Positions 11,201 through 41,700 are shown, numbered from the stretch's first letter. The stretch: 64,000 nucleotides of DNA from Balanoglossus misakiensis (GCA_040954595.2 CM082578.2:835740-899739); one strand, 5' to 3'. Numbers and translations: made by a program. The notes: generated by a model not told the origin, from the sequence alone.

Positions 11201-14200
11201 TTTGTTGGACATGGACAAGTATGGGATCAAAATTTTTTGCCCAAATGTTGGGTGACCTCTGGTGACCTTTGACCTACTTTCGCATATCTCAGCATCCAGA
11301 GCAGATACAGCCATGGCATTTGATAGGATGGGACCAAAATGTAAAGCCACATTTTTGGGTCACCTGTGACACCTGCTGACCTCATTAAATATGCACATAC
11401 CTAATTACACGCGAACCAATAGAGCTAGAGTTTTGGTTTTTGTTGGACATAGACCAGTATGGGTTCAAAATTTTTTGCCCAAATGTTGGGTGACCTCAGG
11501 TGACCTTTGACCTACTTCACCCTATTTCAGCAGCAAAAATACACACATCCTTGTTATGTCATGAGATAATACATCTGATAGAAAATTCTGTTTCTTCTTA
11601 TTCATACTGTGCATATATAAATCAAGATCAGCGCTTGGGCCCGACAATGCTGCTCGCAGCTTTAATTCTTTCTTTCTTTATTCTTGTGTCAATTCTTTGA
11701 CCCACGAGATCTCAGACACCGCTGCAGGTACACTTCTGAAACTTGCTACAGTGGTCAAGGTCAATGAGTAGTCGTGCATTGAACCCTTGAATTTTTAATT
11801 AGTCACGTGACCTGGCGGCCATCTTGGATTTTCTGAAAAAATGCAAATCTCAGATCTCAGAAACTACAAGTCAGATCGACTTCAAATTTGGCATGTTGGT
11901 AGACTACCTACTGCCCATCATTTTTGTAATTGAAAATTATGCTGACTAAGTTGCAGTTTTTTGCTACAATTTTTTTTCTGAAATCTGGCTTAAATTTCAA
12001 AAATCTTCTTCTCCAGAACCGGTGATAACCGAGACACAGGGTTTGGTGTATGTGGTCACCTAACTGATGTCTATCAAGTTTGCGAAGATCATTGTGATTG
12101 GTCGAAGATTTTGGCGGCCATATTGGATTTTCGAAAAACCCTAGTAAAATTTCAAAAATCTTCTTCTCAAGAACCGGCGATAACCAAGTCACAAGATTTG
12201 GTGTGTGTGGTCATTAAACAGATGTCTATTAAGTTTGCTAAGAAGAATGTGATTGGTCGAAGATTATGGCGGCCATATTGGATTTTGTGAAAAACGATTA
12301 AAAAGTAAAAATTGCCTTTCTAGCCTAAAAATTGTTAGCACAGAAATTCTTTTTATGGATATGAATCATCATATGACAAGAATAAGCTATAAATATTTTT
12401 GTAATTTTGGCAATGACCTTTGACCTACCTTTGACGCATCATTTTTCTGCATATCTAATTCCACTCTAACCAATAGGGCTATAAGTTTGGTGTTTGATGT
12501 ATGTGGATTTGTATGTGATCAAAAAATGTTGCTACTTTTCATGACCTCTGCTGACCTCATTAAATATGCACATATCTAATTACAGATGAACCAATAGACC
12601 TAGAGGTTTTGTTTATGTTATACATGGACCAGTATGGGGTCAAAATATTTTGCCCAAATAATTGGTGACCTCGGGTGACCTTTGACCTACTTTTGCATAT
12701 CTCGACATCCACAGCAGATACAGCCTTGGCGTTTGGAGGTACATGTATGGGGCCATACGGAAAAGACAAAGTTTTGGGTGACCTGTGACACCTGCTTGAC
12801 TCATTATTTATGTGCATACCTAATTCTGGGCTAACCAAAAGGGCTAGAGGTTTTGTTTTTGTTATACATGGACCAGTATGGGGTCAAAATATTTTGCCCA
12901 AATGTTGGGTGACCTCGGGTGACCTTTGACAAACTTTTGCATAACTTGACATCCACCGCAGATACAGCCTTGGCGTTTGGAGGTATGGGGCCATAATGAA
13001 AAGCCAAAGTTTTGGCTCACCTGTGACACCTGCTTAACTCATTATTATGTGCATACCTAATTCTGGGCTAACCAAAAGGGCTAGAGGTCTGGTTTTTGTT
13101 GGACATGGACCACTATGGGTCAAAATTTTCTGCCCAAATTTTGGGTGACCTCAGATGACCTTTGACCTACTTTTGCATATCTCGACATCCACAGCAGATA
13201 CAGCCTTGGCGTTTGGAGGTATGGGGCCATAATGAAAAGCCAAAGTTTTGGGTCACCTATGACACCTGCTTAACTCATTATTTATGTGCATACCTAATTC
13301 CGGGCTAACCAAAAGGGCTAGAGGTCTGGTTTTTGTTGGACATGCACCACTATGGGTCAAAATTTTCTGCCCAAATTTTGGGTGACCTCAGATGACCTTT
13401 GACCTACTTAACACAATATCAGCACCAAACATAGATATAACCTTGATATGTCATGGGATAAAACACAGCATTATGTTTCTACTCATTAATTATGTGCAGA
13501 TCAGATAATAGAGCTTGGGCCCGGACAATGCTGCTTGCAGCTTTAATTCTTCTTCTTCTTCTTCTTCCGAGAAATTCGGCCAGGTAGATCTGGAAAACCG
13601 CTGCACCTAGGGGGCTAAACTTGGTAGGGTGATAGGGGCCAATGAGTAGACGTGCAGTGGCTCGTGAATATTTAATTAGTCACGTGACCTGGCGGCCATA
13701 TTAGATTTCCTGAAAATCGTTAAACGAGTCCTTCTCAAATTTGGTGTGCAGGTAGCCTACCTTCTGTCCATCATTTTACCCCCTTGAAATCATGACGTCA
13801 CACATAAAGTTTTTTTGCTACAATTGTTTTTCTGAAAAACTACTTAAAACTTTAAAAATCTTCTTCTCCAGAACCAGCGATTGCCGATTCACGGGATTCG
13901 GGGTATGTGGTCACCTAACCTATGTTTATCAAGTTTGCGAAGCGCACTGTGATTGGTCGATCATTATGGCGGCCATGTTAAATTTTCGGAAAACCATTGA
14001 AAAATGTTGACAGCACGTAAATTCTTGTTTTGGATATGAGTCATCATATGACCGGAAGTTGTTACAATTTTTCGGGGCAATTATGACATGACCTTTGACC
14101 CAGTTTTAAAACAACTAATTATATATGCATATTCCCCATACCTCCTATTGTAAAAGCACCACAGTCATGAATTTTGTGGACATGGGTACCAATGCTGCCA

Positions 14201-14707
14201 GGACATGACACAACTATTTTGGTAATTTTGGCAATGACCCTTGACCTATTTCTGAAACATCATTTTTCTGCATATCTAATTCCAGGCTAACCAATAGGGC
14301 TAGAGGTCTGGTTTTAGTTGGACATGGCCCACTCCGGGGTCAAAATTTTATGCCCAAATTTTGGGTGACCTTGGATGACCTTTGATCTAATTTCCCATAT
14401 CTCAGCATCCACAGCAGTTAGAGTCCTGGCTTTTGGAGGGCCGATGGAGCAGATATGGAGTCTTACACAAGACCTCATTAATTATGCGCATACCTAATTA
14501 TAGGCGAACCAATAGAGCTAGGTGTTTGGTTTTTGTTGGACCTAGACTAGTATGGGGTCCGATTTTTTTGCCCAAATTTGGGGTGACCTCAGGTGACCTT
14601 TGACCTACTTTCCAATATCTTGGTATCCACAGCAGATACAGCCTTGGCATTTGCTTGTTACCATGGGAACCGCTTGTGCCCCGCCAACGCTGCTTGCAGC
14701 TTTAATT
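4026..14707 (+). mobile_element. Stack of non-autonomous Helentron-associated (HINE/DINE-like) elements
   Basis: Six bodies ending at about 6689, 8817, 10249, 11667, 13548 and 14707, each with subTIR gcttgggccc plus stem-loop gctgct(t/c)gcagc-tttaatt, a pyrimidine microsatellite start, aaaatcttcttctccagaacc motifs and a variable number of ~237-bp internal repeats. Confidence 0.82.
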
Positions 14708-17900: not shown

Positions 17901-20900
17901 CTGTCTAATCGGGAAACCTCTCTTCAACCAACAGTTTTTCCTAGTCCCTTTTACATAGAAACATGTTAATGTGTTGGTGTTCTGTTTAAAAGATTTGACT
18001 GTGTAATAAATATGGTTGTCACACATACACCATTAAGACAGTTCTGAAGCATCTCAGAATTGATACTGTCTTAAAAAACATGTGTGGACGGTGTAAGTGG
18101 TCCTGAAACGTCTCAGATTTGAGACGGCTCTGCCAGCCAGACCTGAGCCGGTGTAAGGATTAACACCTCTCCGCAACCCATTGTCTATGGGGCCGAGCCT
18201 CAGCGCCCATACATAAACTTTGTGTGTGTGGACACAACATGACTCAAAGGATTAATGCTCTGTGGTTAGCACTGGCAAATAGTGTCTCAAATTTTACCCT
18301 GTGTGAACCTGGTAAAAGAGGCATTGTGCCCTAGTGGCTAGGGTTGTGGGTTCGTTACCTAGACCTGGGCATTTGGGTAGTATTTGCCTGTTGGATGATA
18401 TATGAGACACAGACATTTGGGTAGTATTTGCCTGTTGGATGATAGATGAAATAAAATTAAAAATATATAGACAAATAAACTGTGTTCTCCTTTCTTTTAC
18501 AGCATTTGATTGTGAAAAGCCAGCACCACCAGTTAAAGGTATTTCCATCTGTAATGAGTTTGAGTCGGGTGTGTTCTGTCAGGTGGATTGTTTACCAGGA
18601 TACAAGTTTGCAAGCCTGCCAGCACCTTACTATCTCTGCCATAGTGAAGGATATTTTAATCCTGAGAATCCAGACGAGGAATTCACCTTCCCTGGATGTT
18701 CAGGTGAGAAAAAAATGATTTGGTATCAGTAAAGAAATATAATCAGGTTGCACATGCACATTCAGAAAATGCTCCAAAGAGAGAGAGTTGTGAGAGGGGG
18801 TATTCCAGCATTGAGACAATTTTCTTTTAGTTATAAATGAAAAGAGAAATATGAGTAATGCAAATTCTTGCTTTACAGTATGTCAAGGTTGTGATTACAG
18901 GTAGATAATTTGTTAACATCATATCTGCTTACCCCAATATAAAGCTCCAGTACATTTGAGCTATTTTCTTAATATTTTGTTCTGGGTAAGCAGCTGTAAC
19001 TTTCCTGATTGGCTAATCGGTTTCGCAGTCTAAGTCAATACATCGTTCGCTAGATTGAAAATTGCATCTTTAACAAAATTTGTTTGTTTGTATTGTTCTA
19101 CTGCAGCTCCTGGGAAGACTCAACGTGGAGTGAATTGTGGCGTGTCATACAATTCACAGGCTGGTACATGTAACAATGGTGTCATCCAGCAATTGAGGAT
19201 CAGTTTTATGAACACTATCAACTATCTGAATGATTTGTTTGGTATTTGTGGCGGTGAATGCAACTTTGATGACCTTGAAATAACCTGCAATGCCTCAAAC
19301 CGAAGAAAGAGACAGGCTGATACTCAGCTTGTGGTTCAGTTCAGTTTCACAACCAATGCGTGAGTAGTAATTGTAATTTTTCGAGTATTTTATTCCCCTT
19401 CTGTTCTATTGAAATGACTTTGGTGACATGTCTAGGGTACTGATCCCAGGCTGTGTGAGGACCAGCTCTGTATTCCCTATACAGCTGGTGTTTGCATTAT
19501 TGCAAAATATTCCATTCATGCAAGTGAAAACAAATTATTTTGTGTCTTAACACTCAAACATTTTCAGTTTTTGGCAACCCCATCATTTCTGCCCACCTTC
19601 CTTCATGTTGCGGCATCCTGTATTCTAAAGATTCGTGCATTCGAAATATACTGCAAAACGTGTTATTTTCGCGAGCAGTAAATTTCTGCAAAACATGCGC
19701 TGGTCAAAAAAACGTTAAAATAAAAAGTTGTGTAAAATGTTTTTGGAGATAATGATGCAGTTAGTGAAATACGAGAACTCGAAAATTCGTCCTCACGTAA
19801 CAGTCGCCTCTTTTAATATCGCGAAAATTTCCTGTCGTGAAAACAACCCAGTTTACAGTACACACTTCTGGTTGGTATTGTAATGTGGCATATGTAAGAA
19901 TTTTTTGCCTGTTGTTTTATCCATTAGCTCTGCTGATGCTGCAGCTGTAGTTATTGAAGATGCAGTCAAGAATGGTACTTTTGATACAGCTGAATATTCG
20001 GTCGACGCTGAGACATTACAAGTTGAAAGTACAATATTCTGTTCCAATGGTAGTGTTCTTGTTGGAGAAGAATGTGGTGAGTGCCTATACTCCTCAGTTG
20101 TTATGTACTTTAACCCTTTCACTCCCAGTTTCCTCTATAGAGGTCAAACCTTACCATAGAAAACAATTGGTTTGGACTGAACCATGGTGGTGAAAGGATT
20201 AAAACTGTGTCCAAAATTAATATTATAAAAAGGTGTAGATGTTAATATGTTTATATCGCCTGATATGACCTGTTAGGTGGGCCGTATTGCTGCAAGTGTG
20301 GTTGTGAGTCGCAGTGTACAAATCAAAGACAAGTGTGAGTGGTAAATAAAACCCAACCAAGAGGTGATATAAGGAAATAATTGATTTGATATGCTCATAC
20401 CAAGGAGGGACAAAGTCTCTTTCTCGCTGCCCTTTTTCCATTAATTATGTTTGATAGAAGACACAGTTAATGTTATTCTACATGTGGATATATAGTGAAT
20501 CAACATTCAACCACACACAACTGCCATCCCACTTGTAGACACAAGAGTGAAAAACTGGCCAAAATGAATGCTGTGTGTTACAATTGTAGTTGTGTTTTAA
20601 ACCATTAATGCATAATGATCAGTACATGAACAATGTATACATCTGCCTTCAACATTTTGTATTTCCACAGTATTGTGTCCTGAAGGGTCGTACCATGACA
20701 CTGAGCTGAGTCAGTGCCATCCTTGTGCAATTGGATATTATCAACCCCTTGAGGGACAAACAGCATGCAATGCCTGTCCAAATTAAAGCTGCAAGCAGCG
20801 TTGAAGGGGCCCAAGCATAGAGTTAATAACCATTAGACTCCATTCAGGGTTGTACCATTCAAATGCGTAGGCTGTATTTGCTCTGGATGTGGAGATATGG

Positions 20901-23900
20901 GGAAGTAGGCAACCACCCGAAATGGATGTCTTACAAGTACAAACACAACAACCAAAGGTGAACTTCTACGTTGTAAGTACTTCAGTTACTTCAAAGGTCA
21001 GCTGAGGGTATCCAAAAATTGGGCCAAAAATTAGGATTCTTATTTGGTTCATATTCAAGACAACGGAAAATCCTCGCTGTTTGGGTTTGTCAAATTAGAT
21101 ATGGCCATAATAATGAGTTACGCAAGTAAGTTACAGGTAGCCCCTAAAATTTAGCATTTCATGACGCAGAGGGTCCTACCCTACCCCTCCAAACACCTGG
21201 CTATACATGATGTGCATGCTAACATATGGAAAGCAGGTCAATGGACACCTGATGTCACCCAAAAATTTGACAAAAATGTTCATTCCTGTTTATGTCATGT
21301 GCAAGAAATCCTACATTTGCAGCCCTTTCACTTAGCCTACCATTAGGTATGCACGTAATACATGAATCAAGCAGGTGTCGCAGGTATCCGCCTGTATTTG
21401 GCATTTCATGATAGTTTCGCTCGGAATACCAAAGCTGCACTTGTACAACGGGCTGAGATATGGCACTGTACGACAGAGGTCATCCAAATCAACTTATACA
21501 TTTGGGCAAAAACAAACTGACACTTACATTCGTCCCTGTGGAACAAAAACCACACCTATTGCCCTGTTGGTTAGGCTGCATTCACAAACACCTCTGGAGG
21601 GGGGTGGGCAGGAGAATTGAGGGGGGGATTTGAAAAAATTTAGGGTATGTAAGGGGGGGATTTGAAATAATTTTGGGACTGTAAAGGGGGGGGGCTTGAA
21701 AACTTTGAGGACTAAATATTTATTTTGAGTCCACAAAAATGCAGTTTTGAACCCTTCATAATACAACATTTTCTAATGTGGGAGGGGAACACCCCCTCCC
21801 ACACCCACCCCCGTCATTCATCAGCACCTTTAAATCATTGACTGTTTTATCTAGTGTCCCAGGTCAGGGGACTTGCCCCCACCCCATGATAACTTTGAGC
21901 AGCGACGGTTAAATTTGTCCTCCCCAACATACCGGTAGTTGAGTTAATTTGCTTTTGCCGGGTTCATTAAAATGCAGTTGTGAACTCTGTATTTTATAAA
22001 ATTTTCGTACGTGGGAGGGGGACACCCCCTCCCAAACCCACCCCCTTCACTTCTCGATTTACAATGTCTCCCAACACAGAATACTAAGTTAAAAAAAATA
22101 GAAACAATTATGTTCAGTTTTAATACCCACTGATAAGGGGAAACATCAGTTTCAAATTCTTTTCATGAGAGCGCTGTTTTTCTTTTTTACAAGATAGATA
22201 GGTGATGTGTTTTGCTGTGTGAAAGAAAATTGGGGGGGGGGGGGGATTTGAAAATTTTAGCAGTTCGGAAGGGGGGGATTTGAAAATATTTCGGGTTGTT
22301 GAGGGGGGCATGTGAAAATTAACGGTAAAAAAAATTGAATTCTCCTGCCCCCCCCTCCAGAGGTGTTTGTGAATGCAGCCTTAGTGTCCAATTAAATGTA
22401 CAAAATCAATGACTTAGGCAGGTGCAACAGGTGACCCCGCCTTTGGTATATCTTTATGGTCCCATCCCTATATGCCCCCCCCCCCCACGCCAAAGCTGCA
22501 TGCATCTGCTGTGGATGCTCACTAAGCAAAAGTAGGTGAAATGTCACATAAGATCGCCCATAAGGCTGCATTCACAAACACCTCTTGAGGGGGGGGGGAG
22601 AATTCAATTTGTTTTACCGCTAATTTTCACATGCCCCCCGTACACAACCCGAAAAATTTCAAATCCCCCCCTTCCGAACTGCCAAAATTTTGAAATCCCC
22701 CCTCCCCATTTTCTTTCACAGAGCAAAACACATCACCTAGTATCTATCTTGTAAAAAAAGAAAAACAGCGCTCCCATTTTTTAAGTATTTGTATCCTGTG
22801 TTGGGAGACATTGTAAACCGAGAATTGAAGGGGGTGGGTTTGGGAGGGGGTGCACGTAAGAAAATTTTATAAAATACAGAGCTCAAAGCTGCATTTAATT
22901 AGAAAATTTTGTAAAATAAAGGGCGCGAAACTGCATTTTTGTGGACTCAAAATAAATATTTAGTCGTCAAAGTTTTCAAGTCCCCGCCCTTTCAGTCCCA
23001 AAATTATTTCAAATCCCCGCCTCAATTCTCCTGCCCCCCCCCCCCTCCTGAGGTGTTTGTGAATGCAGCCTAACTTGACAGGAAAATCGGACTTCATATT
23101 GATCCATTTGCAACAAATACCACACTAGCATCCCTTTCATTGACCCCACAATTACGCATGCACATAATTGAGTTACGCAGGTGTCACAGGTGACCCCCGA
23201 ATCGGGCGTATTATTTTGGTCCCATACAGCTGCATGAAGCTGCGTGCCATTACGGGCGATCTGATAACCCCCACGGCCACCTGCGGGCCAACCCCCATAC
23301 TGAACGTTCAGTTGCAACGTCACGACTGAAGTAGGAACTGTTGAACGGCAAAGAAGCCTGATCTCTGATTATTGCTGGTACCATACTCCCTTCGTGCAAG
23401 AAAATCATTGGTCTGCTGCCGCAATACATTGAATGTTAACCAGTGCAGGTATTTAAGGGTGTCGAAAAGACAAGAGTGAGGGGCCAAAGTGCGGGACACG
23501 CACAGTGCAATAAATGGCACTCTGCGGGAATTCACGCACAATGCAATATATTCGACTCTGCGGGAATACGCACACTGCACAAGATGTGGGAGGACCCTTG
23601 GCTTTGATTACATTTGAATTTCGAGGAGTTCGATCGTGTTTTTGACAACGTCCGACGACATTCGGGCGAATGATCGGGCGATCAACCACCCACGATCGAC
23701 ATTTTCTACTTTCATGTTGCATTTCGAGGAGGTCGATCGTGTTTTTGACGATGTCCGACGACATTCGGTCGTTGAAAATAATAAATGATCGGGCGATCAA
23801 CCACCCACAATCGACATTTTCTACTGTCCTGATGTTGCATTCGTAAGTGGTAAACCCAATGACCAACAGAGCAAGGTCCGTTCCCTGCGTGTCGGATCAC

Positions 23901-26900
23901 ATCCCATCGCGCAACAATTTCGCTGGAGACTGTCGCTGCACTCACGCCATATGCACATCTTTGCGTTCTAATTCGAGCGGGAAGTGAGTTATCCCGTCTA
24001 TGCTTGTTCCGGAAAACCCGTGTTATGACGTCAAGGTCATTCATTGATACAAGATCGCACTGTTGACGTGCGACGCGTTTGCAAATCAAAATCCACGCAA
24101 ACGATTTTCCGGGCAGGACTATGACATGTTCACAGGATGAATGCACTGCAAAAAACGTGATGTCTGCAGAGCATGTATGTGCCATCACCCATATGACAGG
24201 CTGCAGCTTCATGAACACGAGCTAGAAACAAAGGCCATGCGTATGTACGTGTGCACGTTCCGTGTCTTCTCCTTGCTATATGCATTCGCGTTCCGAAAAC
24301 ACACGGTAAAACTCATCAAAATGTGTTGTTATTTTATATGCGATGTCTGTACAGTGTGCACGCAATTTTCGCCTTTTATGTGCCAAATAAACTATTGAAA
24401 CTACTGTTGTCATGCTCTTGTCTTGGTATTTTTCTTCTTCTTGGCATCGCTATTAAACCTCTCTTGTACATATACGTTCAATTTTAGAGATAACGTGTAG
24501 GCCCCCTCAAAGAAAGCCGGTTGCCCCCTCAAAGAAAGCCGGTGTTGCTAGTTTGGCATTTGTTGCTAGTATTCTGAATATCTCCCCTGTGACAGCACAA
24601 GTCCACGAGCACCTGTGGTCCGAGGTCTGGGACCGTCGATTTTAAGTGTGTTAAAAGTAAAGCAAACTTAACCTCAAAACTGAATATTTTCCCTATACTT
24701 GAACATGCATAATTACAATAGAATAAATTAAAATAAAGGCTAAATGAAATCAGATCTTTAAACCAAATAGTGTTTTGAATAGAGCAATTACTACTCTATA
24801 TCATATATAAAAGACAAAACAAATACATTAAAAAAAATTTTCCAAGTGTCCAAAAAAATTATTCTTTTGTTTTTATACATGTTAAGTCTATGGGCATTAT
24901 TTCAGTCTATTTTGCAACAACATTTGGAATACTTAATGGCGTCCAATCTCAAAAGTGTAAACTTTTTTATATTCTAGAACATCTCATGATGGTTTCTGGA
25001 AAGTTTCATCTTTGAAATGCTTAAAATAAAAAAATAATCTTAAAAAAGCAAAGTGTATATTAAAAAAAGCTAATTTACAGCTAATTTACAGAAGTTTGCT
25101 TTTTGGTCAAAAAAGTGCTTTTATGTTAAAATATTTAAATGTAACTTTTGTCAAGAGTTTATAGATAGACACTCTACTTGTGTACCAAATTTCGAGGTCA
25201 AAGGTCAAAGGATAATGAAATCCGACATAGGTAAACCAACAACTATAAGCAATGGCGAAGTTGACCTTGACCTTCGAATTTCAAAATTTTTTCACCACAC
25301 CACATTAAAACAACTTATTATCAATCTATCCTGTAATTTTCAGTGGTTTCCAACTATATTAAGGGGGTGACACCGCGTACCCTAAAAAGTATGTTTTTTT
25401 CAATAGGTTTTTCCGCAATAACTTTTCAAGGTCAAGTTCAAAGTTGGTCAAATTTTAGTATGTTATAAAACTCGCCGAGACCTTTCTGAAAATATATAGT
25501 TTGTTATGGTTTATGTAAAATTTAAAAGTACCTACCAAGAAATCCGTCCATGCACAATTTGGACTTGCCGTCTGGAGCAACTTGCATATACCCACCAAGG
25601 CATTTTTTTGGCCTTTCTAAAAATGTTTTTTTTTAAAGGCTGGGGTTAGACAGGGGACCAAAATCAATAACAACAACCTAAAAGATAACAAAATAAATCC
25701 AAACAATTTTTTCTAACCCTCTTTTTTTGGCCAAACAAGACATAAGTTGGGCATTGGGGGACTCGACCTTAAAAAACATGGAAGGGTTGACTTGTTTTTG
25801 TTGATATTTTTTGTTGTTGTTGTTTACATGTTTACCTACATTGTATCAAAAGGAGGGGTAAAAAAAACATTGGCAAGGCAGTAGGGTTAGAGCCCGAAAT
25901 CTCAGGTCCCCTAATGCCCGTTGGACCCTAATTAGGGTTAGGGTTAGGGTTAGGGGGTTTAAGATCACATACTGGTACATGTGTATGTTTTGTGAGTTGT
26001 GTGATGTATTTTGTAGTACAAGGGATGTCAATACATCCATACAGGAGTGCCTATATGAGCGCAAGTCTCTTTTCAGGATTTCTCTGTAACACTTCAAATT
26101 TTTGACATTATCGGTGTCATCCTTGCACAAAAATTAATGACCCTCCCCTTGACAAGTGCCCAAAACGTAGCGGCCGTCCCCCAAACCGTTGCATGAGAAA
26201 TGGTGACCCTCCCCCCAATCGCACCGGCCCTCCCCCCTTGTTAATTCTGACCAGGCCCTTACCGCGCGGCCGATGCCTCCCCTAAGTTGGCAGTAGTTTC
26301 GACTAGAATTTCCACTGCAAACCAAAACATGGTTCATGCACGCAAACTTATGTAAGAGTAAAAGCTCGGGTCATCAGTAACATGTGTCTGAAATATTGCA
26401 TTTTCTTGTGTGAAAGTTTTGCCATCCAACGTGCATGTAAGGCTGTGCATGAATGTACATTGTACTGCACTGTAAACTTGGACATTGCATTACCGCAAGG
26501 ATTTAATTTCATTCCACCAACAAATCAGGGCCATGGGCAGATATTCACCCATTTAGGCCGAAACCATCACTTTTAGCTTTCAATAGTTAACATGACTTTA
26601 GTTGGGGTCTTAATCGGCAACGGGGCTGAAATCGGCAGCTTTACCTGCCGATCTTATCCCTTAGAAGCCATGGTTTGTTTGTCAAGGCATGCGCGGGGAC
26701 GTATTCGGCATGGTGCCGAATTCGGCACAACACCGGGACTAAAATAAAATGTTTGCTGATAAAAATGTTAATGGTGTTGCATCATTTTGTCGTTCATCCT
26801 GGAGTGACTGTGATCCTGTCAATCATATTGCGACAATTATTTTTTTCAAGGTTGTACCAATAAAAACCTAACATATCCAATAGTGTTTGTCGTTTATTTA

Positions 26901-29737
26901 TTATCTTATTTGGGGTGCCCCCGATGCCTGCACATGTACATACTTCGTACTGTATTACGTTCGCTTCTGCTTTTAATCTCGTTTGAAATGCCGTTTTCTT
27001 CGTGTATACGTTTGCATTTGTGCCTAATCTTGAAATGTTTTTGGGCTCACGTGATAAAACCGCGATTATTTGACCCTTTTTGTGAGATTTTTATTATGTG
27101 TTGTATTCTTTGGGTTCATTGTGTTTTACTGATAAGGGTTTTCCTTCATGTCTACGTGATGCTAAGATGCTCTATGTGAATCGGTCTGGGCGGGGTTCAT
27201 CGGTACGCTCATTTTGCGCAAGGCAATCTGCGCCACTCAACTAATATTTCTCTATGAACTGGTTGACATGTAGGATGAGTCGGTAGAAGGGAAAATAAAC
27301 TTATAAGACCGTTTCATTTTATAAGCAGTCTCATTTAGAATGATGTCCCATCGGATGCAATACTTATGCTAAAAGTATACCTACTGGCACAGAAATTTAA
27401 GTTCAACTAAGACTTCATCGTCACATTCGACCGAGTTAAAACATAAATAATCACTGTGGACAAATACTGTGGAAGTTATATCTCACGGTGGTATTTCCTC
27501 CCGAGTAGAATGGTTAAAAGCACTAATAGCTCGATAATCGGAGTGAGAAAAACGAACAACATTTACACCTGTTTTCAGTTATTGCCTTGTTCGTTTTATC
27601 ACAGACAATTTGACTACTAGTATTTTTCTGTGGTTTTATTCCATGAGAGTAGCGTGTTGACTGAAGAACTTGTGGAGATCATTATTGCCTACATTTGTGA
27701 ACTCTGTTATAGCGCTCAACAGAAACAAATTTTAAAACCTTGTTGACTGACATCTTAGTTGACAACCTTTTGCTTTCCCAAGTTGTAGGCCTACTCCATA
27801 TATGATATTCATTTTGCAGTTTTTTCTCGAACAACTTCCTACCGATAAGGTCGTCACCCGGTGACCAGCACACAGACTTGTACACCGTAACGCCATTCAA
27901 GGCCGTGATGTCGGGCGAGACTTAAAGTTATCAGAAATTGATTAAGTTCGTGGTTACAACAACTCACACATATTCATAATTATAGGCCAATGTACCGAAA
28001 TATCGTACGTTCGTTCAGTGCAGCACTCAAATGATATAGTTTTATAATAGGTCTGGTATGTTAGTCTTGCCAGTTCGCGTTCTTATTGCCGAAAGTTGGG
28101 TCATTTAGCTCGCTATCATCAACGGTGTAGTATGGTAATGTGGTGATAGGACGACGATGTAATAAGGGGTCAAAGGTGGAAGATCCTCGGAATCTGACGA
28201 AAGATGGGTGAGGGACGATCGTTTAGGGTAGCCTCGATTTCGTTGAGGACCGTCTGTAGCTCATCAACAGACACGAAGCGTCGACCTAGAACTTTTCTGT
28301 GAGATATTTTAGTGGGGAGCGCGTTTTGGTATAAAACACCATTCTACGCGGCAATTTGCATACAATTAGTGTTAAACACACCTGTTCTCGCACGTTTAGT
28401 ACAGGGTAAAGGTCACTTGCCCGTCGGACAAAAGACTTTTATTTTTCACTTGTCCGGGCTGTCCGATCTTCTCTATGTCATGATGCAGTTCCCAAAGAAG
28501 TACCAAAGGCAACAGTGGCAGTCACTGACTGCACACTTTGACAAATTTCACACGAAAACACAGATTAAAGCTGCAGTTGTTGCAACGTTTTTCGATCCCG
28601 TCACCAAGAAACGGATTTTTGTCATCCATGGCACCCAGCCACTTGCCAGAACCCTTGAAGCAAACGTTTCAACATTTCTGACTGTACCAGCGCATCCTAG
28701 TGATGATAATGATCAACAACCCCCAGAAAGCGTACTGCCAGATCTAAGAAACCACCATAAGAAGAAGCTCTCTTCGTTCACTTACTATGATGTAAGAGAA
28801 CTTTTACCAGCATTGGTAAAATGCACCACAAATCGTGCCCAACCTTTGTGGGACAGACCAGACATGAAGCCAGTATGGTGGCCAGCCGAAACACCGTACT
28901 GCAACCCCAGTCGGCCCGGTAAAGTGGTTGCTTCAACGTCTTCGTGGGTCACGCGCATGAAAGACGTTGCTAAGTCATGTTACCAGTATTATGGACAGGT
29001 CGAGTTGACAGGTACGTACCATTTAAACGGTTATTTAATTAGAATGGTGAAAGTTTGCTAGACATTACTCCTGAGAATGTATAGATTCAGCAATAAACAA
29101 AATCATCCGTTTTACACGAGCTATACATTCTTTTGAGATGAAGGCCTTGAAAACGAACATCGACTGACAAAGTTTAATTAACCACAGTACCGAAAATGAC
29201 GTTTTTTTTGTTAAAAGTGGTTTTTAATTTTGTTCAGCTGGTCTCTTGGTAAGTACTTCTCTGCAAAACAGTGAGAATATTTTGGCTTACTAAACTTGTT
29301 CTCACTTTTTCACAGGCGATGATGAAGACAGTAGGCCTACTGATTGTCCGACTGGTGAGGGTGCAGCGGTTACCCGAGACCCACAACTTGAAAGCGATAT
29401 TGCCCAATTTTTCTCAGGCAATAATGAAGTCAGTAGGCCAACTGATTGTCCGACTGGTGAGGGTGCAACCCAATATCCACAACCTGAAAACGATATTGCT
29501 GGGCATTCTATTATAGGTAAGCGTGTCTTTTATTGCAACTATAATGTAGATCGTGAAGAGTCATAGTCTACAAGGTAAATGTTTTTAGCCTTGACTGTAA
29601 AAAAGAAAATGTAAAAATCATACACCAGGGTCCAGTACATACATTTTTGTTCTATTCGCATCATACAGTAAAATTATTCGTGCAGATTCAAATTCGAAGT
29701 AAATTCCTCGATATCATCACTTGTTGCGCTTTTCTTG

Positions 29738-29768
<31 letters not shown>

Positions 29769-32700
29769 TGCGATGCATCGTACGTGTCATGTGAGACACT
29801 GTCGGGAGTTTGGACTTGGGTTTGTCGTGTCGAATTCACCTATGTCAAATTTATAAGCCACAGTCCCTCAAGAAAGACGGTCGGGAATCGCCCATTGTTC
29901 GGACGTGCGAATGAGGGGATTAGCTGTAGGATGCGCATTATGGTCACGTGACCACCTTAGAGTTGCGTTTTTTCCCCTTGGAAGCAAGCGGCAGTCGCCC
30001 TACTATCTATGATTTTCCCGATATGTTAGTTATGTTTGTGGAGGAACTGTGTATAAGCCAACTGACATCATTTTGTAGGTTTATATGATTCCGCTGGCAA
30101 TTTTCAGGATCTAATACATTTGAATGCACCATACGATACGTGGCAATTTTATATTGAGTGTGCTCCGAGAAAAGTAACAGCGCAAAAATAGAGGACAGCG
30201 CGACATTGCACATTTATACGATATCGGATATTTATCGTCTAGTATCGTCTAAAACATTAAACTAGACTGTACTTTAACAACAACTTTGCCTGCTTCCCGA
30301 CTATGTCGGACCTCAAAAATATCCGATAGTATCGATACTATCGATACTAGAGTCTAGTATCGTCTAAAACGTTAAAGTAGACTGCACTTTAACAACAACT
30401 TTGCCTGCTTCCCGACTATGTCGGACCTCAAAAATATCCGATAGTATCGATACTATCGATACTAGAGTCTAGTATCGTCTAAAACGTTAAAGTAGACTGC
30501 ACTTTAACAACAACTTTGCCTGCTTCCCGACTATGTCGGACCTCAAAAATATCCGATAGTATCGATACTATCGATACTAGAGTCTAGTATCGTCTAAAAC
30601 GTTAAAGTAGACTGTACTTAAACAACAACTTTCAATACTAGACGATACGTGGTGTACTGACCTCTTGAGCCGTCAGTGTGGATTTTGTGTTTTTAACGTT
30701 TGGCATTTTCAGTCATGTGTATGTGTACATTTACCCAATTTAGTTCTACAATATTTACAAAGGTCATTTTCATCTTTTCTCTATAAAGGCACAAACACAG
30801 AAGTTGGAGCAGTGCTATCATTCATACAGCATGAATCAGATCCTCACTACCTCACACAAGATCTGAGTACAATAAATTTTGAGGATCTTGGTAAGAAATA
30901 TCCCTATTACAATGTATTACTTTCTTTATCACAGTGAAACCTCTCCAAGTTCTATGTTTAACCTCGACCATGTGGTGGAGTGATCGTGATTTAATATGTC
31001 TTAGCAAACTTAAATATACTTAAATATACTTAAACAACAAGCCAACCAACAGGGGAAAACGGGTTGTAACTGGAGAGATACAGACTGAATTTCTTGCTTA
31101 CAATCCTTTAATCAAAACAATCACTCTTTATCTGTCCATTCAGTATTTATCTCTCCTGTTACAAGCAGTTTGTTCCACTCTGGTCAGTTTGATTGCTATC
31201 ATTGTCATTATGAATTTTGCAATTACTTAAGCAATAAAACACCCCCAGCCATGGTATACCACGAGATTTTTGACCAGTTCACGACATATACGCACGAGCG
31301 ATAGCGAGTGCGTATATGGAGTTGAACTGGTCAAAATCGAGTGGTATACCATGGCTGGGGTGTTTTATTGCTATTATATTATGCCAGTATATTGAAACTT
31401 TGCATATAACATTTTAAAAAGGCATTTTCTTTGACTATGATATATGACTGTGGTATATGGCTAATATATCACGGTCACGTGTCGTGTCTCGACCAATCAA
31501 ATAGCGTGATTTACACCATCAATATACGGTATAATATAATAATTATTTAATAATAATGGTGTTAATGATTTTGTATTTGAATACACATAGTCATTTAAAT
31601 GTGACTAGGACAATTATTATAGTTTAACCTTTGTTCAGTGGTTGTTTTATGTACTTCTTGTATGGAGAGAGGGATACCTCAGTGTTAAAAAATACCAAAT
31701 TTTGCTATGTGTCTGTAAAAAGGGGTAAAAGCCATTATGTAGTCAATAGGTTTTTAATTTTTATGTTTTACCTGTGTTCTGATGACTTAAGTAAAACTAT
31801 TGAATAATGTCAACCAATACACTTCTATATTTCATTTTCTTTTCAGGTTCACATCCCATTCACCCATCACCCCAGCCAGCAACTCCATCAGCCAACAGTT
31901 CCATCAACACAAGTGCAGAATTATCACCAGTGTCTTACACACTACCACAGCAACAGCCAGCAGCACAAATCCAACAGCCAGAATCACCACCAGCAGCACA
32001 AATCCAACAGCCAGAATCACCACCAGCAGCACAAATCCAACAGCCAGAATCACCACCAGCAGCACAAATCCAACAGCCAGAATCACCACCAGCAGCACAA
32101 ACCCAACAACCAGCATCACTACCGCCACGCCGCAGTCAACGGTCAGGAAGGAAGACCAGAAAAGTTCAAGATGATGAAGAACTGCAACAAGAGCTGGCAA
32201 CCCTGAAGAAACTCCACCAAATGAAGAAATCAGGGGACCTTCTTGACCTGGTGCTCAGTTGCCCAATTCCCAAAAAAAGCGTCGGACAAACCCATTCCAT
32301 CTAGTGGCCCTAAAAAGACAAAATCCCACTGAGTACAACAGATTATTAACTGCATTTGAAGCATCAGAAGTTAGTGTGAATGTGGTTCTCCAGTTCATGC
32401 ACCAGCACATAAAACAGTTCAAGAACCTGCAAATCGATCATGCAGAACAAGTTTTGGGCTTCATTTGTCAAAAACTCAACTTATGAGTTGATATTTTCAT
32501 TGTCTTTTAACTCTTTTTCCCATTCTTGTCTTTCTGTGTTAATTAATGTACATTTCAAAACGCAGTTATCAATCTGTTGTATTCTGCGGGATTTTGTCTT
32601 TTTAGCTGGGAAAATGGGAATTTGGTCAAAACTCGGTAACTTAATTATTGGTCAGATTGCTTTGCAAAGTGGTGTGTACTTTATTGAGACATCATATAGA

Positions 32701-35700
32701 TTTTTTTGTGGTGATATCATAAAATGACTAATTTTGGTGAATTTTTTATCTTTTTCCCAAAATCTTCTTTTACAAAAAAACTTTTCAAATTCACAACAAA
32801 AATCATTTGAGGGTGTGTAGAGGTTTTTCATTTTTTTTTTTTTTGAATCATGGTAAGAATTCAATAGTATATTTTGGGGTGATTTTTGCCATTTTTGGTC
32901 CAAACTCTCAGAACCCTCTACCCCCATTGCTTTTAAATTTGATTTGCAGGTTACCAGGTGTGTTCTCATAATGATTTACAAAATCTATGATGAAAGTGTC
33001 AATATTTTGTGGGGGCAATATCTTGTATTTATGGTGCATACTTTCCAATTTTGATTTGAAAAAACTATATTTCTCAAAGTGTTGGGCTGATTACAAATGT
33101 ACTTTAGAATTTAAGTTGTGAGTTAATGGGATGGGGTTCTTTAAAATTGTAATGGAATCAAATCGTAGGTATTTCGGAATTTGGCTGTTCTATTTGGTGT
33201 ATGTACAGTACACGTGCCATTAGCAGCTTATGGGTCAGTGTTTGCCCATTGATCTCTCTCTATGTGTGTGTGTGTCTGTCTGTCTATGTACTTCAGTGTA
33301 GACTTTTTCTTGATTAATCCCTAAATGGGACCAGTGTCCTTGACGCTGTTTTTGACAGTTATCTTTGAGTAGTGATTGTTTTTGACAAATATGAACGGTA
33401 TATTAAAATAACACTAAAGTCCACCTCGGGTGTGTGGTGTACTTCTTTATTCAATTTTATATACATGTGTGCCTGTGTAATGATTTGTGCATTTCTTCTT
33501 TATTAACAAGTTTATCGGTGTACGGTAGTTCTCTTTTTTAAGGATGTGGTGGCCCTGAGAAGGGCCGTTTGGTATGTGTATGCAGAGCATACGTCTCTGA
33601 GACGCTAAAAAACTTCCATGAAAACACCTCCGTAGTTGTCCTCTGATGACTGAATTTCTTCTTTAGTACCCTGCGAACACACCTCCTATACATTCCATCT
33701 CCCCATAGATGTATATGGCTGGTCTACATTCTCATTCTGATAACAAAATGGAAATTCGACACGTCAGTAACAAATACAATAAACTGTAAAACACCACTTT
33801 CTCTTATGCATCTTGTTTTGTTTTGTCAGCACAGCAGCAATGTAAAACCATGCAGCAAGAATTTTACTGATACAGATGATAAAGCATCATGTTAAAGTTA
33901 TCTTTTACCGTTTTCATCAGCACAGTTATAAAATCGCATGATTCCAAGCATCTCATGTCTTTGGGAATATGGGTCATCTTGTTACCTCGTGTAACACATC
34001 ATCCATGGATTTGCCCTCTTCATTATGGACAGTTTGTCAGTACTTCTCAAAAACTGAAACAAAATAACAGACAGACTTTATATGACGGCAGTCATGGGGA
34101 GTGACTGTGATGATGGTCTACCGTTCATAAATCTGGAAAAATATAGTTTTTGTTTTCTTGAAGTGTCTAATGCTGCAGTCACACAATCAACTGAAACAGT
34201 CAGAGAATTAATTAATAGTATTCTGTGTAATGTAAGTTGACCACAATGAAAGCAAGAATGGTCCTAAATCAATATAAATCCAGATGGTTTCAGCTATAAC
34301 TCATTTGAAAAAATGTCCGAGCTAGACAGTTAAAGTGCGGTTTTCAGAACAAACAAAAGACCTTATACTTTATATCAGTCATTGCTTTCTGTTCAATTAA
34401 ATAGAAAAATCGGAAAAACAAACTTATCTATTTTAAAACCTTGAACTACAAGTAGTTCAGGTGACTTTTCTTCTTTTGATTCCAGATTGCAAGGAACAGT
34501 CTGACATGGAAGATGAAATTATCTGGGGTCATATAAGATACTTGTGCCTTAATTTTCTGTAATGCTGCATTGCTCTGCTCACAGATCTGGGTATTTATGT
34601 TGGCCAAACTTCTGTTGTCCTTGTACTGTTGCAGGCTATAACCTGATGAACAACTGATCAGTAAAATATAAAAGAAGATTCTTCTGTGAAAATTTTAACA
34701 GTATAAAACATAAACAATTTTTTCAGACAAATTGATATCGTTCCTTAGAAAATTGACACACATGCCCTGAATACATTTCAGATACCTGATTAACAGAGCT
34801 TATGAGCCAGTCAGAAGTTGTAATTTGAGCAAACCTGTTTATGTCACCAGTCCGGGTTATGTCTCTGAGTGGAATAATAGAATTGACCAATCGGTGATTG
34901 CCATTGTGAAATTTGATTTTATCAGAGCAAAATCCTTTCCCTGTCTCCTACCTCCTAACTGACTCCAAATATGATGTGGTTAACTGGTCGTATACTTCTT
35001 AGCTGTTCCAGTCAACTAAGCTCTGCAATTGCCAAACATAGATGATTTGAAAAATATTCTTTTGAGCTTTTTAATCTGATACTCACCCAATGTGGTTTTT
35101 CCAATGGAGACGATCCACTAAGAAAACTGTCTTCATGAAATAGTTTGGTTCTCTGAAGAAAGACAAAAAATCACTTCATTAGTTCTAATCTTTATATTCT
35201 TGCTGAAAGGAGTAAGCAACGTCAATTCATCAAATTCTTGATTTTTTTTTTTGGGGGGGGGGGGGGGTAAAACACAAAATTAACCATATGACAAGCTGAC
35301 ATCTCAATATGAAAAAATTGTAACAAAGTGGCTGCCAGACCACCATCTTGGATCATATCGCAAAAAAAAATGAGTTAAAGGCAAGGGTGGGCAAGCATAA
35401 TTGAGCATAAAATAAAGCTTAGCCACCCTTCTCTTAAGTTTAACAGAAGTGTGGTAATCACATTAACATACAAAACAGTATATCAAGGTTGAAATAAGAC
35501 TTACCGATTTAAACAGTACTGATGCAGCCGACATGCATTGTCATATATGACAATGGCTGGAGGTTGTCTTAGTCTTGTTGTCATAATGTTGAATGGCACT
35601 TCGGGTGACTCCACTTGCCTCATAGCCTGGAAGCCATAGCAGAACCCATGTTGACAGAACACAGTGAAAATGCCAGGTGATAACGTAGGGTGTTTGTTGG

Positions 35701-38700
35701 AGATCTTTTGGCAAGTGTCATCACCATGTGCAAGTCTGTCTTTGTCTTGCCGGTACAGAGGTTTCCTATTAAATGAAAAGTGAAAGCATGATAACTAAGA
35801 GAATGGCAATGGCATGCATAGCACATGGGTACATAAACTTCCATTTTGAATACATATAAACATGTATACAGAAAGGTATGTCTAAGTGGGAAATGAAAAT
35901 TCACAAAAGTAATGAAAATAATGCAAAAAGTGGCAGCTCTAGAGGCTTAAGACAGACTTCAATTAACTTTCAAGTTACAGTGAGATATCCTTACCCATGA
36001 AGCTTTGGTAGGCAAGGGAAGCAAGCTACAGGGTCTTCTATTGGATCTGGATATTGCACAGTACTATCAGGTCCCTGGTTACATACTTTGTATGAGCTCC
36101 TCACTCGTAACAACACATCTCTAAGAAGGCGACGCACTTCTCTTGGGATACCATGAGGATTGTGCCCGAAATGTGACAGCAATTTGAAAATAAGAGGAGC
36201 ATCTTGCTGTACAATTTCAAGTTCCCCTTGATGTCTGCTGTCAAATATATCGAGTCCGTGTATTATTTTCTTGATGACATGTTTAGCCTGTGAATCTGGG
36301 GTCAATTGCAGAAGAGCACTTGCAGGCGAGTTTTTTGACAAATCTTGAAGAAATTGGCAGAACTCCTTTGGGGCTAGCAGATTTCTTCCGTGTCCACTGA
36401 CGAGTTGGAGAAATTCCATAAGCGAATGGAGGTGACTGTACTTTCTCATCAAATTAATCATCACTGTGTACTCAAGGGGTGTAAGTGGTTTCTCAGCTGG
36501 CTTGTTGGTACTACAAAACTGTAATAACAGTTTCCTGACCTTGGCATTTGGTATATACACTCGGTCACAGTGACGTGTACCAATATCCAAAGGCTGGCCT
36601 TGGTCACGTGATGCCCTCTCTGGGTCTGGAAGTTCTTGCAAGAGGCGTTTGTTCAGTCCTACACTCGTACCATCACATATCAGAACAGAAGGCTGCAGCT
36701 CACATATAGGGCATTGGTATACAGTGCCATAATTTATGTCCAATAGCCTTGCAAATGCATTCCAGGCATTCCTAAGTTTGTGGTATTTCAAAGAAACAGA
36801 CTCTGATAACATAGCATGTTTTTCAGAGTAGGCCCTATTTAAGAACAGAAAGAAAGATTAATGTCAGGTGATTGCCAGGAGTGAAAGAAAGTTTATAATG
36901 TTTATCTGTTGTAACATTTTTATACTGTACCTTCTCTGATAAGAGCCCCCAAATTAATGGGGGGTGGGGGTGAAAAGAATACAACCTGGTACATCAAGAA
37001 ATGTGTTTTTGGTGGGCTTCCTAATCACCCTGTAAATTATATCATGGGAAAAATGGCGCTCTTGAGCATGTGACAGGTCTAAACAATTATCGGACTGGTA
37101 AAAGCAACAATGAACTTTTGAAATTTGATGACTGACTATATGGGTAACAGCCTTCCCTAGAGAATATTTAGACAAAAATTTTGCTTACCACCCCTTCGTT
37201 CAAGTATTAATGGGTAATTTCAGTATTGATCTTTCCTTGCTGAGCTACCAAATACATAAGTTCCCTAGTCAATGATTATATTTTTAGAAATACAAAGTAT
37301 ATGTACTTACCTATGGAAAGATGCCAACGGATTTCTGGACTCTACCATCAAATGAAGGTAGGAGAGTAATAAACTGTAGTGAATAATGTCCTTGTTGTTC
37401 AGATTAAACATCAAATCTCCATGCCCATCATAATGCAACCTGCACATACATGGACCAACACTTGGACGATAGTACACTGCAAGGAAAATAATGACTATGT
37501 TAATATAATTACCAATACATGTAGGAGATCATTAGATAAGTGGGATGGAAGTTGCGTGTGGTCGAACGGTGATTCACTATATAGCCATATGTAGAATAAT
37601 ATTCACGGTGTCTTGTATCAATCAAACATTTTAATGGAAAAATGGCAGTGATCCAATGCAACCTTAAACCAATGGTACAGTAAATAAGGTTAACTTACCC
37701 TTGATAGTTTGTTCCTCTCCTTCTACATAAACATGCTGAAGTGAATGTGTCTCATAATACACAATGGCATCTCCAACAAGCCAATGTTGTTGTACAGGGT
37801 CATCAACATCCCATGCATGTCCATGTTGACAGGTAGAATGGGGGCCAGCACTTGGTATCTCGGGAATTAGATTATGCTGTACAGGCTGTTCTCCACTTTG
37901 TTGTTGTTGAAACTTTACCTTCAGAGAGTCATCAAGAGGGTATGAGATTGGCTTAAATGACACGCTTGGGAAAGTACTTTCTTTCAAAGTGCGTTCAGTT
38001 TCTTGAATCTCAACCTCATTTTGTCCATACCATATTCGGTATTCTTCAACATGGTCACATGTGGTTCTACCATATGCGCAGGTCTCACAGCTAAGTTTTT
38101 TACCAACATGTTTGTTCCTCAGAGATATTATATGTGTGTCTTCACCTATGGTAACACTAGTCAGGAACGGATTCAATGACAGGCAATCAACAATGACTGA
38201 TGTGTCTGCAGAGTTGGGGTCCACTTCAACAGGTACATCAGGAAAAAGTTCACTTGCTGCCCAGGCATGAAGACAGTATTTATTTTTTTCAGTTGTGATG
38301 AACTCATCAAAGTTTTCTGGTATCCCACGCTGAGATGAGGATAATCTGGCTGCTTGGATTAACCCATCCTGACATGAACATGTATACAGGAACTCCTGAG
38401 ACGTACTCTGCACACTGTAAAATCGCAGGTTACGTTTGACAATAACGTGCTGTGATATCAACTGCCCAGTCTCAATTTCACAATCTGACAATACATATGT
38501 ATTGCCAGATGATAGCTCCCACTTTCTGTTCTGGGCTTGTAACTGATGCAGGTATTCTTCCCTTGCGTTATTGCCAATTGTACCAACTACTGAAGATATT
38601 CTGAAGAGAAACAAACAAAACTTGGTCACATATAAACATTTATGTTCACTGATTCCTCTAAAAAAGTATCTATTGTTTTGAAAGAGCATATCAATAACTA

Positions 38701-41700
38701 AATAAATTTTCATTGTACTCAACACATATGATACTAATTAAAAAAGCAGATCTGACCTAACCATATTTAAACACAGAAATGTAAAAAGAAATTAACAATA
38801 GGCCAATAAAGTGTCATGTGTGATGGCAATTTTAGAGAGGCAGTGCTAGAGAAATTGATATTTGACTAAAATGATATACAAACCATTACATTACCAGCAG
38901 CTAACCTCCCCCCCCCCCCCATTTTTATCTCAAGTAATGTACACACAAGGCAGATAAGTCCCCCATAAACCTGGCTTCCTATCAGGTGTTTGCTGATAAC
39001 ATGCCAAATTTAAAGTAGGGATACATAACCAAAGTAAGCTGTTGTAAAAATCAGTGAAATTTCCATATTTGTGTTCTTGGGGCAATTTTGGCCGTTTTTG
39101 GTCTTAAATCATTTTTTTCTCTGATTGATTTGAAATTTGGGACTCAATTTTTATAACACATAAATGTTTGTGTACAACTTCTATTAAATCCTGATATCAC
39201 ATTTTTTTGTGCTTTTCTTTGTTAAAAATAAAACTAAAACCCTAGTTAGAAGGCCTAACTCCAGTCTATGGTCTCCAGTCTTGGTGATCGAGTGCCAGAG
39301 ATCAATTCCCCTGCTATGACTGATTACCCTTACAGAGTATTCATTGGCAGGATTTTTTTGGTTTGAAATAAAATAGTAGTTGCTGAAAACACAGGTCTTC
39401 AGGTACTTCCCCCCAGTCGTCCCACAATGCAATGCGGTTTTCAAGATGGCGGTTAATACAGTTTTGCCCTGAGAGAGAAGGGAGGACACGATCACCCCGC
39501 CGGGATAAATCAATCAAACTATTAAAAGAATTAAATTAATGACACCTATCAACGCCTGTTGTCAGACATTTAATGAGCGACTTTCGTACCTGAAAAGGGC
39601 AAATTAATACCGGCCTTTGTCTCCTTCACGATCACATGATACTGCACGCTATGTGTTACAAACAGTGCAACTCTAATATATACTTACTCAAAACGTTGGC
39701 GCTTTACGCTTTTAGCGATCTCCTGGTGTGGCCGCTTCTTTCTTCGCACATTCGATGGATGGGATTCAAAAAATCGACGACGTTGTTTGCGATCCATTCT
39801 CTATTGAAATGTAATCTATAATAACGAAGTACTGCCAAACTATATGCATGACGTAACGCTATTTAAACGTTTCATTTCATATCGTTGAGGGCGCCAAGAG
39901 TCCCGCAGAGTCGAATATATTGCATTGTGCGTGAATTCCCGCAGAGTGCCATTTATTGCACTGTGCGTGTCCCGCACTTTGGCCCCTCACTCTTGTCTTT
40001 TCGACACCCTTAAATACCTCACCAGTGTAGCCAGGTCTAGATAGAAACATTTGAACGGCAACAGCTAACAAACTCAGCGTAATTCAATAAAACGCCCTAA
40101 CACAGCCTGAACTCGGATAATGTGTTATCCCAAAATTCATTCCGTGGAAAATAATCACTGGTCTGTTTACGTATTTCACCCGATTTTCCAAGGACTACGG
40201 CAACCCGCCAGAAGTGAGTAGCCTGCTAATGAGATCTCCACAACATTACGTAATGACGGTCAAAGTCCGATGCCCCAGTGTCCGTCCTCAGCCCACCAAA
40301 AATGCGAAAAATATTACAAAAATCTTCTTCTCAAAATCGACGTAGCCTAGGACCTTGAAATTTGGCACAAAGGATTTTGGCCACATGGTCTACAAAAATC
40401 GCGAAAAGAATGTACATTCCCCCATTAACGTGCAAATTAGGTCAATTTGAAAATTTCGCTCGATTATAGCCACCAAGTCACGTGACTAATTACAAATTCA
40501 AAGGGCAGGTGCACTAGTACTCATGGGCCCCAATCATCGTGCCAAACTTCATAGGCGCAGGTGCCGGAATTTCAGAGAAAAACGGGAGCAAAAAAACGAC
40601 TCAAGAAGAAAGAAGAAAAACTCCAGCAATAACAGAAGGGGACCAAGCGCCTGAGGGCGCTTGGTCCCCTAATAATGGAGTCACCAGGGGAAAGAGATCA
40701 TTATCCATCTTGCAGTGTTTTGGTATGTATAACAGAAGGCAATATCTCCTCCTCGTCCACAGCCATAGCCTAGTATCTAGCCGTATTTTGTCCGCTTTGC
40801 TTCCAAAACTAGCATCTAGCCTCACTCATGCCACTGGCCCGATAAAACCCCATACCCCTTGCCGGGAATTGTGACGTATATATCAAATTATTGTGGTGTG
40901 ATCCAATATGGAAAGAATGACAATTGGAATGTTCATCTCTTTGGTTGAAAAAATAATTTTTCAACAATGATGTCTATTGCAGAGAGGTGCGATGTTGGTC
41001 ACTACTTTGACAACGGGACTTCTCAGTGCCAAAGCTGCCCCATTGGATTCTGGCAATCAGAAGAAGGAAAGTTTGTGTGTAATACTTGCCCAAAGGGAAT
41101 GCTTACATTAGTTGAAGGAGCTACTGATGAGTCACAATGTCAGGGTAGGTACTTGTGTTATTTGCTATTCTTGACTATCAATCACATGATCTGGCCATGT
41201 GACGTACCCATGGCGTTATCATTTGTTAGTGACAGGCAAGCAATATTTCGGCATCCAGTAAACTTTTTTCCGAGTAGGTTTTTACTTTAGAACCGCCAGA
41301 TATGTAACATATTCAACAGTTTAACAAACTCACGTGAGTGAAAAGCAGATAATCGTGAATATCAAAAAATTAATCTTCTCAATTCCAGAGGTATGTAAAT
41401 CAGTGGGAGTCCAACTTAGTGTCAATGGGTCTTGTGAGTCGTGTCCCATGGGAACCTATCGATCAAATGCTGAACTTCAGCCATCTTGTATGCCGTGCCC
41501 ATTTGGCTTCACCACAAGAACAGTCGGTTCAACCTTAAGTGAAGATTGTAATGTTCGTAAGTATTATGTATACAACTTTTCATGTTGTATCTCAACTGTA
41601 CTGAACTGAAGGTTGTATTATTGTGCCTCAGTTGTTCAGAATAATGATAGTCCTCCAATTTTATTCTATGCTCTTTTTCCATTCCATCAACAGCTTACTG

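Follow-up and report, generated by a model that had tools for sequence, protein, structure and literature searches.

In Harbinger/PIF transposons, the transposase is accompanied by a separate Myb-like protein, for which binding to the element ends has been shown (PMC9179366), and multi-gene elements are already known among KDZ transposons as well (KDZ1, KDZx1 and the TET-bearing families). The TET/JBP genes of fungal KDZ elements are thought to counter silencing (PMC12730594). How a KDZ transposase finds the ends of its element is not established in the KDZ papers cited here. We analysed a 64,000-nt stretch of DNA of the acorn worm Balanoglossus misakiensis (GCA_040954595.2 CM082578.2:835740-899739; hereafter the window, whose coordinates are used throughout), in which a KDZ-type DNA transposon of 16,575 bp (23446-40020, no strand assigned) carries, in addition to an intact transposase gene, a second gene encoding a protein with the predicted fold of the transcription factor NRF1. 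A preliminary description of this DNA had been right about the NRF1 homology, the fold and a frameshift in the gene, but had not named the KDZ transposon to which it belongs as a second gene; its suggestion of a 'DNA-binding regulator or targeting cofactor' still has the standing of an inference. For comparison with described systems we used PMC10810270, PMC12730594, PMC11588098, PMC9179366 and PMC12062965. No NRF1-domain gene in a transposon was found in the titles and abstracts searched; Repbase and subscription journals lie outside this search, and the element may be catalogued there.

The element is delimited by terminal inverted repeats (TIRs) of 119 bp (23447-23565 on the plus strand and 39901-40019 on the minus strand), which are complementary at 119/119 positions. 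It is flanked by two copies of ACCAGTG (23439-23445 and 40021-40027, plus strand), a likely target-site duplication (TSD) of 7 bp observed at one junction; this reading assumes an element spanning 23446-40020 with its outermost base unpaired, the alternative being an 8-bp duplication with one mismatch. The left TIR includes 36-bp units containing TGCG and CGCA, the third of which runs to about position 23580. No copies of the TIR were found elsewhere in the window nor in 12 fetched KDZ loci. The NRF1-like gene and the transposase gene are arranged tail to tail between the TIRs, and no third gene was seen by eye in 23560-28400 and 32500-34440, where open reading frames (ORFs) were not scanned against Pfam.

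The transposase (34446-39797, minus strand) is 850 aa long, with no internal stop, and is encoded by seven predicted exons (39797-39688, 38600-37699, 37476-37311, 36834-35995, 35765-35505, 35152-35087 and 34653-34446). Its identity is 64% with a protein of Ptychodera (over 404 aa), 45% with one of Glandiceps, and 36-39% with four from amphioxus (38% over 863 aa for one of them). Exon 5 of the transposase gene alone matched the KDZ domain with E 3.9e-4, below the cut-off, whereas the homolog P0155 (45% identity over 654 aa) scored above it. The CxC4 domain gave no Pfam match with the single window exons and was at or above the cut-off in the collinear homologs P0159 and P0166; the three transposase homologs scanned showed KDZ and CxC4. 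The residues D447, D748 and E807, located in acidic motifs shared with the homologs (YDN in 12/12, EQxN in 11/12, and CDG in 8/12, the rest being shorter records), are a putative catalytic triad. There are also two Cys/His motifs which had no Pfam match and are, in our own reading, possibly SWIM-like. Considering the KDZ domain, the CxC cluster, the acidic triad and the ends with their TSD, the element is, as far as its sequence can tell, a KDZ DNA transposon, and its perfect TIRs, its intact transposase and the in-frame partner gene of the majority contigs (see below) mark it as apparently young.

Among the described elements, KDZx1 of Cryptococcus deneoformans, of the Zisupton type (PMC11588098), is similar in having a KDZ domain, CxC4 (in homologs for the window element) and SWIM-like Cys/His motifs, in its large size, and in the presence of a second ORF. 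The differences lie in the TSDs (8 bp in KDZx1, against the 7-bp duplication of the window element), in the TIRs (none in KDZx1, 119 bp in the window element) and in the second ORF, which is uncharacterized in KDZx1 and in the window element belongs to the gene of the NRF1-fold protein. As for the 8-bp TSD of Zisupton, the window shows either 7 bp exactly or 8 bp with one mismatch, at a single junction. The fungal KDZ clade Kyakuja (PMC12730594) shares the 7-bp TSD and the 5' end CA, but the families described are devoid of TIRs and contain TET/JBP, and the right end in the window is TC, not TG. With its TIRs and its final C, the element does not match the features described for Kyakuja (7-bp TSD, CA..TG ends, no TIR), although the length of the duplication fits. 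What the element would share with Harbinger/PIF (PMC9179366), taken as a working model, is the combination of a transposase with a separate gene of transcription-factor fold; the transposase family is different, the fold in Harbinger/PIF is Myb/SANT, and the binding that was shown there is inferred here.

The ORF beginning at 28480 matched the Pfam family PF10491 (28480-29010; E 1.2e-14, 55 bits against a cut-off of 23.5, residues 7-176), and its sequence aligned with human NRF1 in PDB 8K4L with E 6e-14; the two matches span both NRF1 subdomains, as the preliminary description had suggested. The exon model, predicted from splice signals and homology, comprises four plus-strand exons separated by GT-AG phase-1 introns, for a protein of ~491 aa if the frame is restored. 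Exon 1 (28480-29011), supported by PF10491, 8K4L and the fold model, encodes the dimerisation and DNA-binding domains, and homologs begin only a few residues away from its ATG. Exon 2 (29316-29516), predicted from splice signals, found no support in the homologs compared, and a second in-frame acceptor is possible at 29418. It encodes an acidic linker (14 D/E versus 3 K/R in 67 aa) in which a 12-residue motif, already reported as duplicated, is present twice because of a 63-nt duplication (57/63 identical) that takes in the splice acceptor of the exon. Exon 3 (30789-30890), supported by splice signals and homologs, contains a short acidic amphipathic motif of the type STINxxDL that is common to the homologs. 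Exon 4 (31847-32486) contains a P/Q-rich linker (21 P and 19 Q in 92 aa), an RRSxR basic motif (32128-32142), a helix, the break in the reading frame, and the C-terminal domain; the 11-aa repeat noted earlier was recovered by a repeat search as a 33-bp plus-strand unit present in 5.1 tandem copies (31957-32123). The exon 3 motif and the RRSxR motif co-occur in the same seven of the 175 fetched proteins (five genes), which supports these two exons; P0001 and P0007 have neither.

The AlphaFold2 model of exon 1 had a mean predicted local distance difference test score (pLDDT) of 89, from a 94-sequence alignment that included many true NRF1 sequences. When searched with Foldseek, it retrieved NRF1 (three chains) as the sole match with E < 0.001, and superposition on the NRF1 DNA-binding domain revealed a clear similarity (Z 14.9 with 8K4L; Z 14.0 with 8K3D, root-mean-square deviation 2.1 over 98 residues). 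The next-best fold was the SRF MADS domain (Z 5.9), to which the NRF1 dimerisation domain has been likened (PMC10810270). The residues by which human NRF1 reads its bases are R206, N242 and R244 (PMC10810270); in the alignment with 8K4L, the first two correspond to R106 and N142 of the window protein, but R244 is replaced by S144, so that NRF1 specificity cannot be assumed. In the nearest homologs a basic residue is found one position past this site. One would predict an altered specificity around a TGC core.

With the NRF1/P3A2/EWG proteins (PF10491, 8K4L; PMC10810270), the window protein shares the dimerisation and DNA-binding domains, in the same predicted fold, and the equivalents of R206, W224, N242 and W258. 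It differs in its low identity (~25%), in the replacement of R244, in being without the N-terminal extension, in having the domain in one exon and another C-terminal half, in belonging to a separate clade, and in its location inside a transposon. The sequence score above the cut-off and the two predicted domain folds place it in the PF10491 family. An orthologous host NRF1 would be characterized by the binding of GCGCATGCGC as a dimer; with its incomplete base-reading triad and its separate clade, the window gene is evidently not the host NRF1.

A search of a representative library gave 149 matches at E <= 0.001, 13 of them at 1e-10, and 10 close matches whose source was looked up included four from Ptychodera flava and two from Glandiceps talaboti. 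In the four best matches the domain is 39-48% identical and the linkers are divergent. Word-index protein searches yielded no relatives of greater length, and five for the family profile. A first tree was built from 133 of 151 domains, the other 18 having been dropped as incomplete; here the window protein belongs to a clade of eight rows (Shimodaira-Hasegawa-like approximate likelihood-ratio test, SH-aLRT, 98) that is distinct from a canonical clade of 88 rows. In a 44-row tree, made without three long rows and without most of the canonical ones, the window protein was in a 10-row clade with support 98/85, the bootstrap being not fully settled. Both trees are unrooted and have long branches, and the window protein's separate clade also contains dispersed paralogs from acorn worms. 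Forcing this clade together with three vertebrate-type rows was rejected by the approximately unbiased (AU) test (p-AU 0.016). A further divergent NRF1-type domain was noticed in bivalve and annelid proteins (P0108, P0087, P0141, P0104 and P0117), some of which are named as C2H2-type.

In the window, the spliced frame ends after residue 430, and a second frame is open from the A7 tract at 32272-32278 to the stop at 32486. The contigs compared come from three DNA runs (X1, X2 and X3) that share a single sample and study, from which the assembly itself may also derive; for the region 32110-32556 there were two contig records in X1, 15 in X2 and none in X3. The contigs crossing the break, one listed per run (depth 217 in X1 and 1987 in X2), are both in frame through 32269-32278 (plus strand) and read PKKKRR; compared with the window, they have A instead of C at 32271 plus one more A, i.e. 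net one base more. The extra A proposed in the preliminary description, with the resulting PKKKRR and the extension to 32486, is thus seen in real contigs, and the frameshift belongs to the window copy or to its assembly, in line with the earlier alternative of an error or a recent lesion. The frameshifted allele was in none of the contigs listed (contigs drop rare variants). The window differed from eight X1 contigs by 12 letters and two gaps over 7,671 nt; as the window copy has private changes, a real lesion and an assembly error are equally plausible. If the break is real, the window copy would yield a protein cut at residue 430, and could still be mobilised by intact copies. A programmed -1 frameshift was rejected, because the break lacks an in-frame XXXYYYZ heptamer and the contigs read through without a shift.

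Alongside the main contig there is a divergent one, with a depth of 23.7 over 32110-32556 and of 46.5 in a wider X1 comparison; depth is no copy number, but the ratio of the two hints at several collapsed copies. Among the changes listed between exon 4 and the divergent contig, at least four codons are synonymous and at least three non-synonymous. At the two ends of the element (bins 23200-23770 and 39759-40300) the depth was ~15,000 in X1 and 145,000-156,000 in X2, far over that of the interior, which hints at many short elements with the same TIR, with a possible contribution of flanking repeats.

The function that we favour for the NRF1-fold product is that of an end-binding helper of the KDZ element, by analogy with the Myb-like protein of Harbinger, with a probability that we put at a little under one half (about 0.45). 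The protein would dimerise, the conserved Arg and Asn would read TGC-centred half-sites within the 36-bp end repeats, the basic motifs would carry the protein into the nucleus, and the transposase would be brought to the element ends, perhaps through the C-terminal helices. NRF1 binds GCGCA-spacer-TGCGC and tolerates changes of the spacer (PMC10810270). The leftmost 135 nt of the element contain six TGCG/CGCA tetramers, against 0.44 expected and a maximum of four in the other 135-nt windows sampled, and the pattern CGCA-CAN-TGCA, present in 13 of 3554 window tiles, occurs there three times. This arrangement is suggestively close to the layout of NRF1 half-sites.

A second element may show a similar organization. 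Scanning metagenomes with the transposase yielded 12 loci from 92 candidates, among them two groups of four near-identical loci; only L004 and L009 extend more than 2 kb downstream of the transposase, leaving two testable elements. In L004, a spliced gene (9700-11294, minus strand) faces a distant KDZ transposase; its introns are of the GT-AG type, and its frame is open after splicing. One exon of this gene, among 3,321 segments, scored 18.5 bits with our own NRF1 profile, a value that none of 100 shuffles attained, and the spliced gene scored 20.1 bits; the match covers the Arg helix and the W..P.WWP loop. In viral contigs, none of 53 candidate stretches was confirmed. Downstream of the KDZ transposase of L009, the region 6690-9568 (minus strand) contains a repeat-rich ORF and a 381-aa ORF with no Pfam match, which resembles an OTU-type protease.

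It should be noted that several observations weigh against an end-binding role, besides the loss of R244. The end motif was chosen when the NRF1 site was already known, its three units go back to a single unit, and end repeats would be expected anyway as transposase sites. The linker of the NRF1-like protein resembles an activation region. The L004 match is weak (E ~1e-4, ~48 residues), the exon concerned gave no match with PF10491 in Pfam, no TIR was found at L004, and L009, the other testable element, had no match with the NRF1 profile. The linker motifs of exons 3 and 4 were defined post hoc, with phmmer searches of those pieces giving E 0.18 or worse, and the named homologs stop soon past RRSxR with no match to the C-terminal domain. 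Finally, among the changes listed between exon 1 and the divergent contig there are at least eight non-synonymous and at least two synonymous codons, which gives no evidence of constraint, and all three DNA runs are of one sample, possibly the source of the assembly.

In the main alternative, somewhat less likely than the helper role, the protein would serve the element as a transcription or anti-silencing factor of its own, binding ends or promoters and activating expression of the transposase without any part in cutting. Its general build, with a DNA-binding domain, the acidic exon 2, the conserved acidic amphipathic motif and the P/Q linker, is that of a transcription factor, and the TET/JBP genes of fungal KDZ elements provide a precedent for anti-silencing (PMC12730594). 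In addition, the likely start of the transposase (39797) lies ~100 bp inside the right TIR, and sites in the TIR are therefore also promoter-proximal. However, the P/Q repeats vary among homologs, as would be expected of a mere spacer, and the motif is repeated at both ends of the element.

It is unlikely that the gene is a passenger, i.e. an old NRF1-like paralog that was captured and has no role in transposition. The absence of an NRF1-like gene from L009, the apparently neutral character of the listed exon 1 changes, and the fact that the acorn-worm homolog accessions are not adjacent to the two acorn-worm transposases found (few records) would agree with such an origin. Against it stand the intact frame of the majority contigs, the preservation of the domain (39-48% identity for the four best matches) while the linkers diverge, the facing gene in L004, and the dispersal of the paralogs, apparently over four different Ptychodera and two different Glandiceps chromosomes. 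Quite improbable is a role in target choice, in which the protein would anchor the transposition machinery at GC-rich sites of host DNA or chromatin instead of at the element ends: NRF1 does bind GC-rich promoters (PMC10810270) and the conserved RRSxR motif could contact chromatin, but the sole insertion seen interrupts an older repeat that itself lies in a host exon, where no promoter is evident, and one site says little.

If the end-binding role is correct, NRF1 would be a further transcription-factor fold carried by DNA transposons, and acorn-worm genes now annotated as 'uncharacterized' or 'EWG-like' would be reassigned to transposons. Because the partner is of solved fold, a direct test is offered by the named domain, residues and end repeats. 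It is a rather unlikely extension of this idea that one lineage of animal KDZ transposons is an old two-component system with an NRF1-fold end-binding subunit, shared from acorn worms to distant hosts such as that of L004. In that case there would be a mobile pool of NRF1 folds, like that of Myb in Harbinger, which would explain the orphan NRF1-like paralogs of invertebrates, and the mobile NRF1 fold might predate host NRF1/EWG, or be its source.

The C-terminal 68 aa (32280-32486, plus strand) are predicted to be helical by a low-confidence single-sequence model (pLDDT 62). No match was found among the 175 fetched proteins, and a fold search with the model was uninformative (best Z 4.7); in the ESM Atlas, this piece fell in DUF3684/DUF8348 clusters at 0.97 with low recognition, which is a lead only. 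Behind the stop there is an inverted copy of the C-terminal coding sequence, with a predicted RNA hairpin (32310-32605, plus strand, arms 32310-32357 and 32558-32605, z -6.1) whose arms are also present in the majority contigs, and which could give double-stranded RNA. A short stretch just upstream of the NRF1-like start (28170-28343, minus strand) resembles the integrase tail of a BEL/Pao retrotransposon.

The element sits in an older repeat insertion, which divides an exon of a host gene between 20783 and 40674. Among the exons of this host gene are pentraxin and ephrin-receptor-like ones; the split exon is of the ephrin-receptor-like repeat type (20673-20783 and 40674-40724), with a nested insertion of 19.9 kb, and the window allele is likely broken or exon-skipping. 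The region 4090-14700 is occupied by arrays whose units measure 53, 155 and 237 bp; they carry a hairpin motif and resemble in sequence the outer repeat around the KDZ element, to which they are related. ORFs of tyrosine recombinases (PF00589) were found at 1-681 and at 56507-57514, the second also matching DUF3504; we presume them to be DIRS-like and Crypton-like. Finally, the regions 46289-51803 and 58098-64000 are a duplication, 11.8 kb apart and 96-97% identical, which includes the start of a long interspersed nuclear element (LINE) and whose first copy contains frameshifts.

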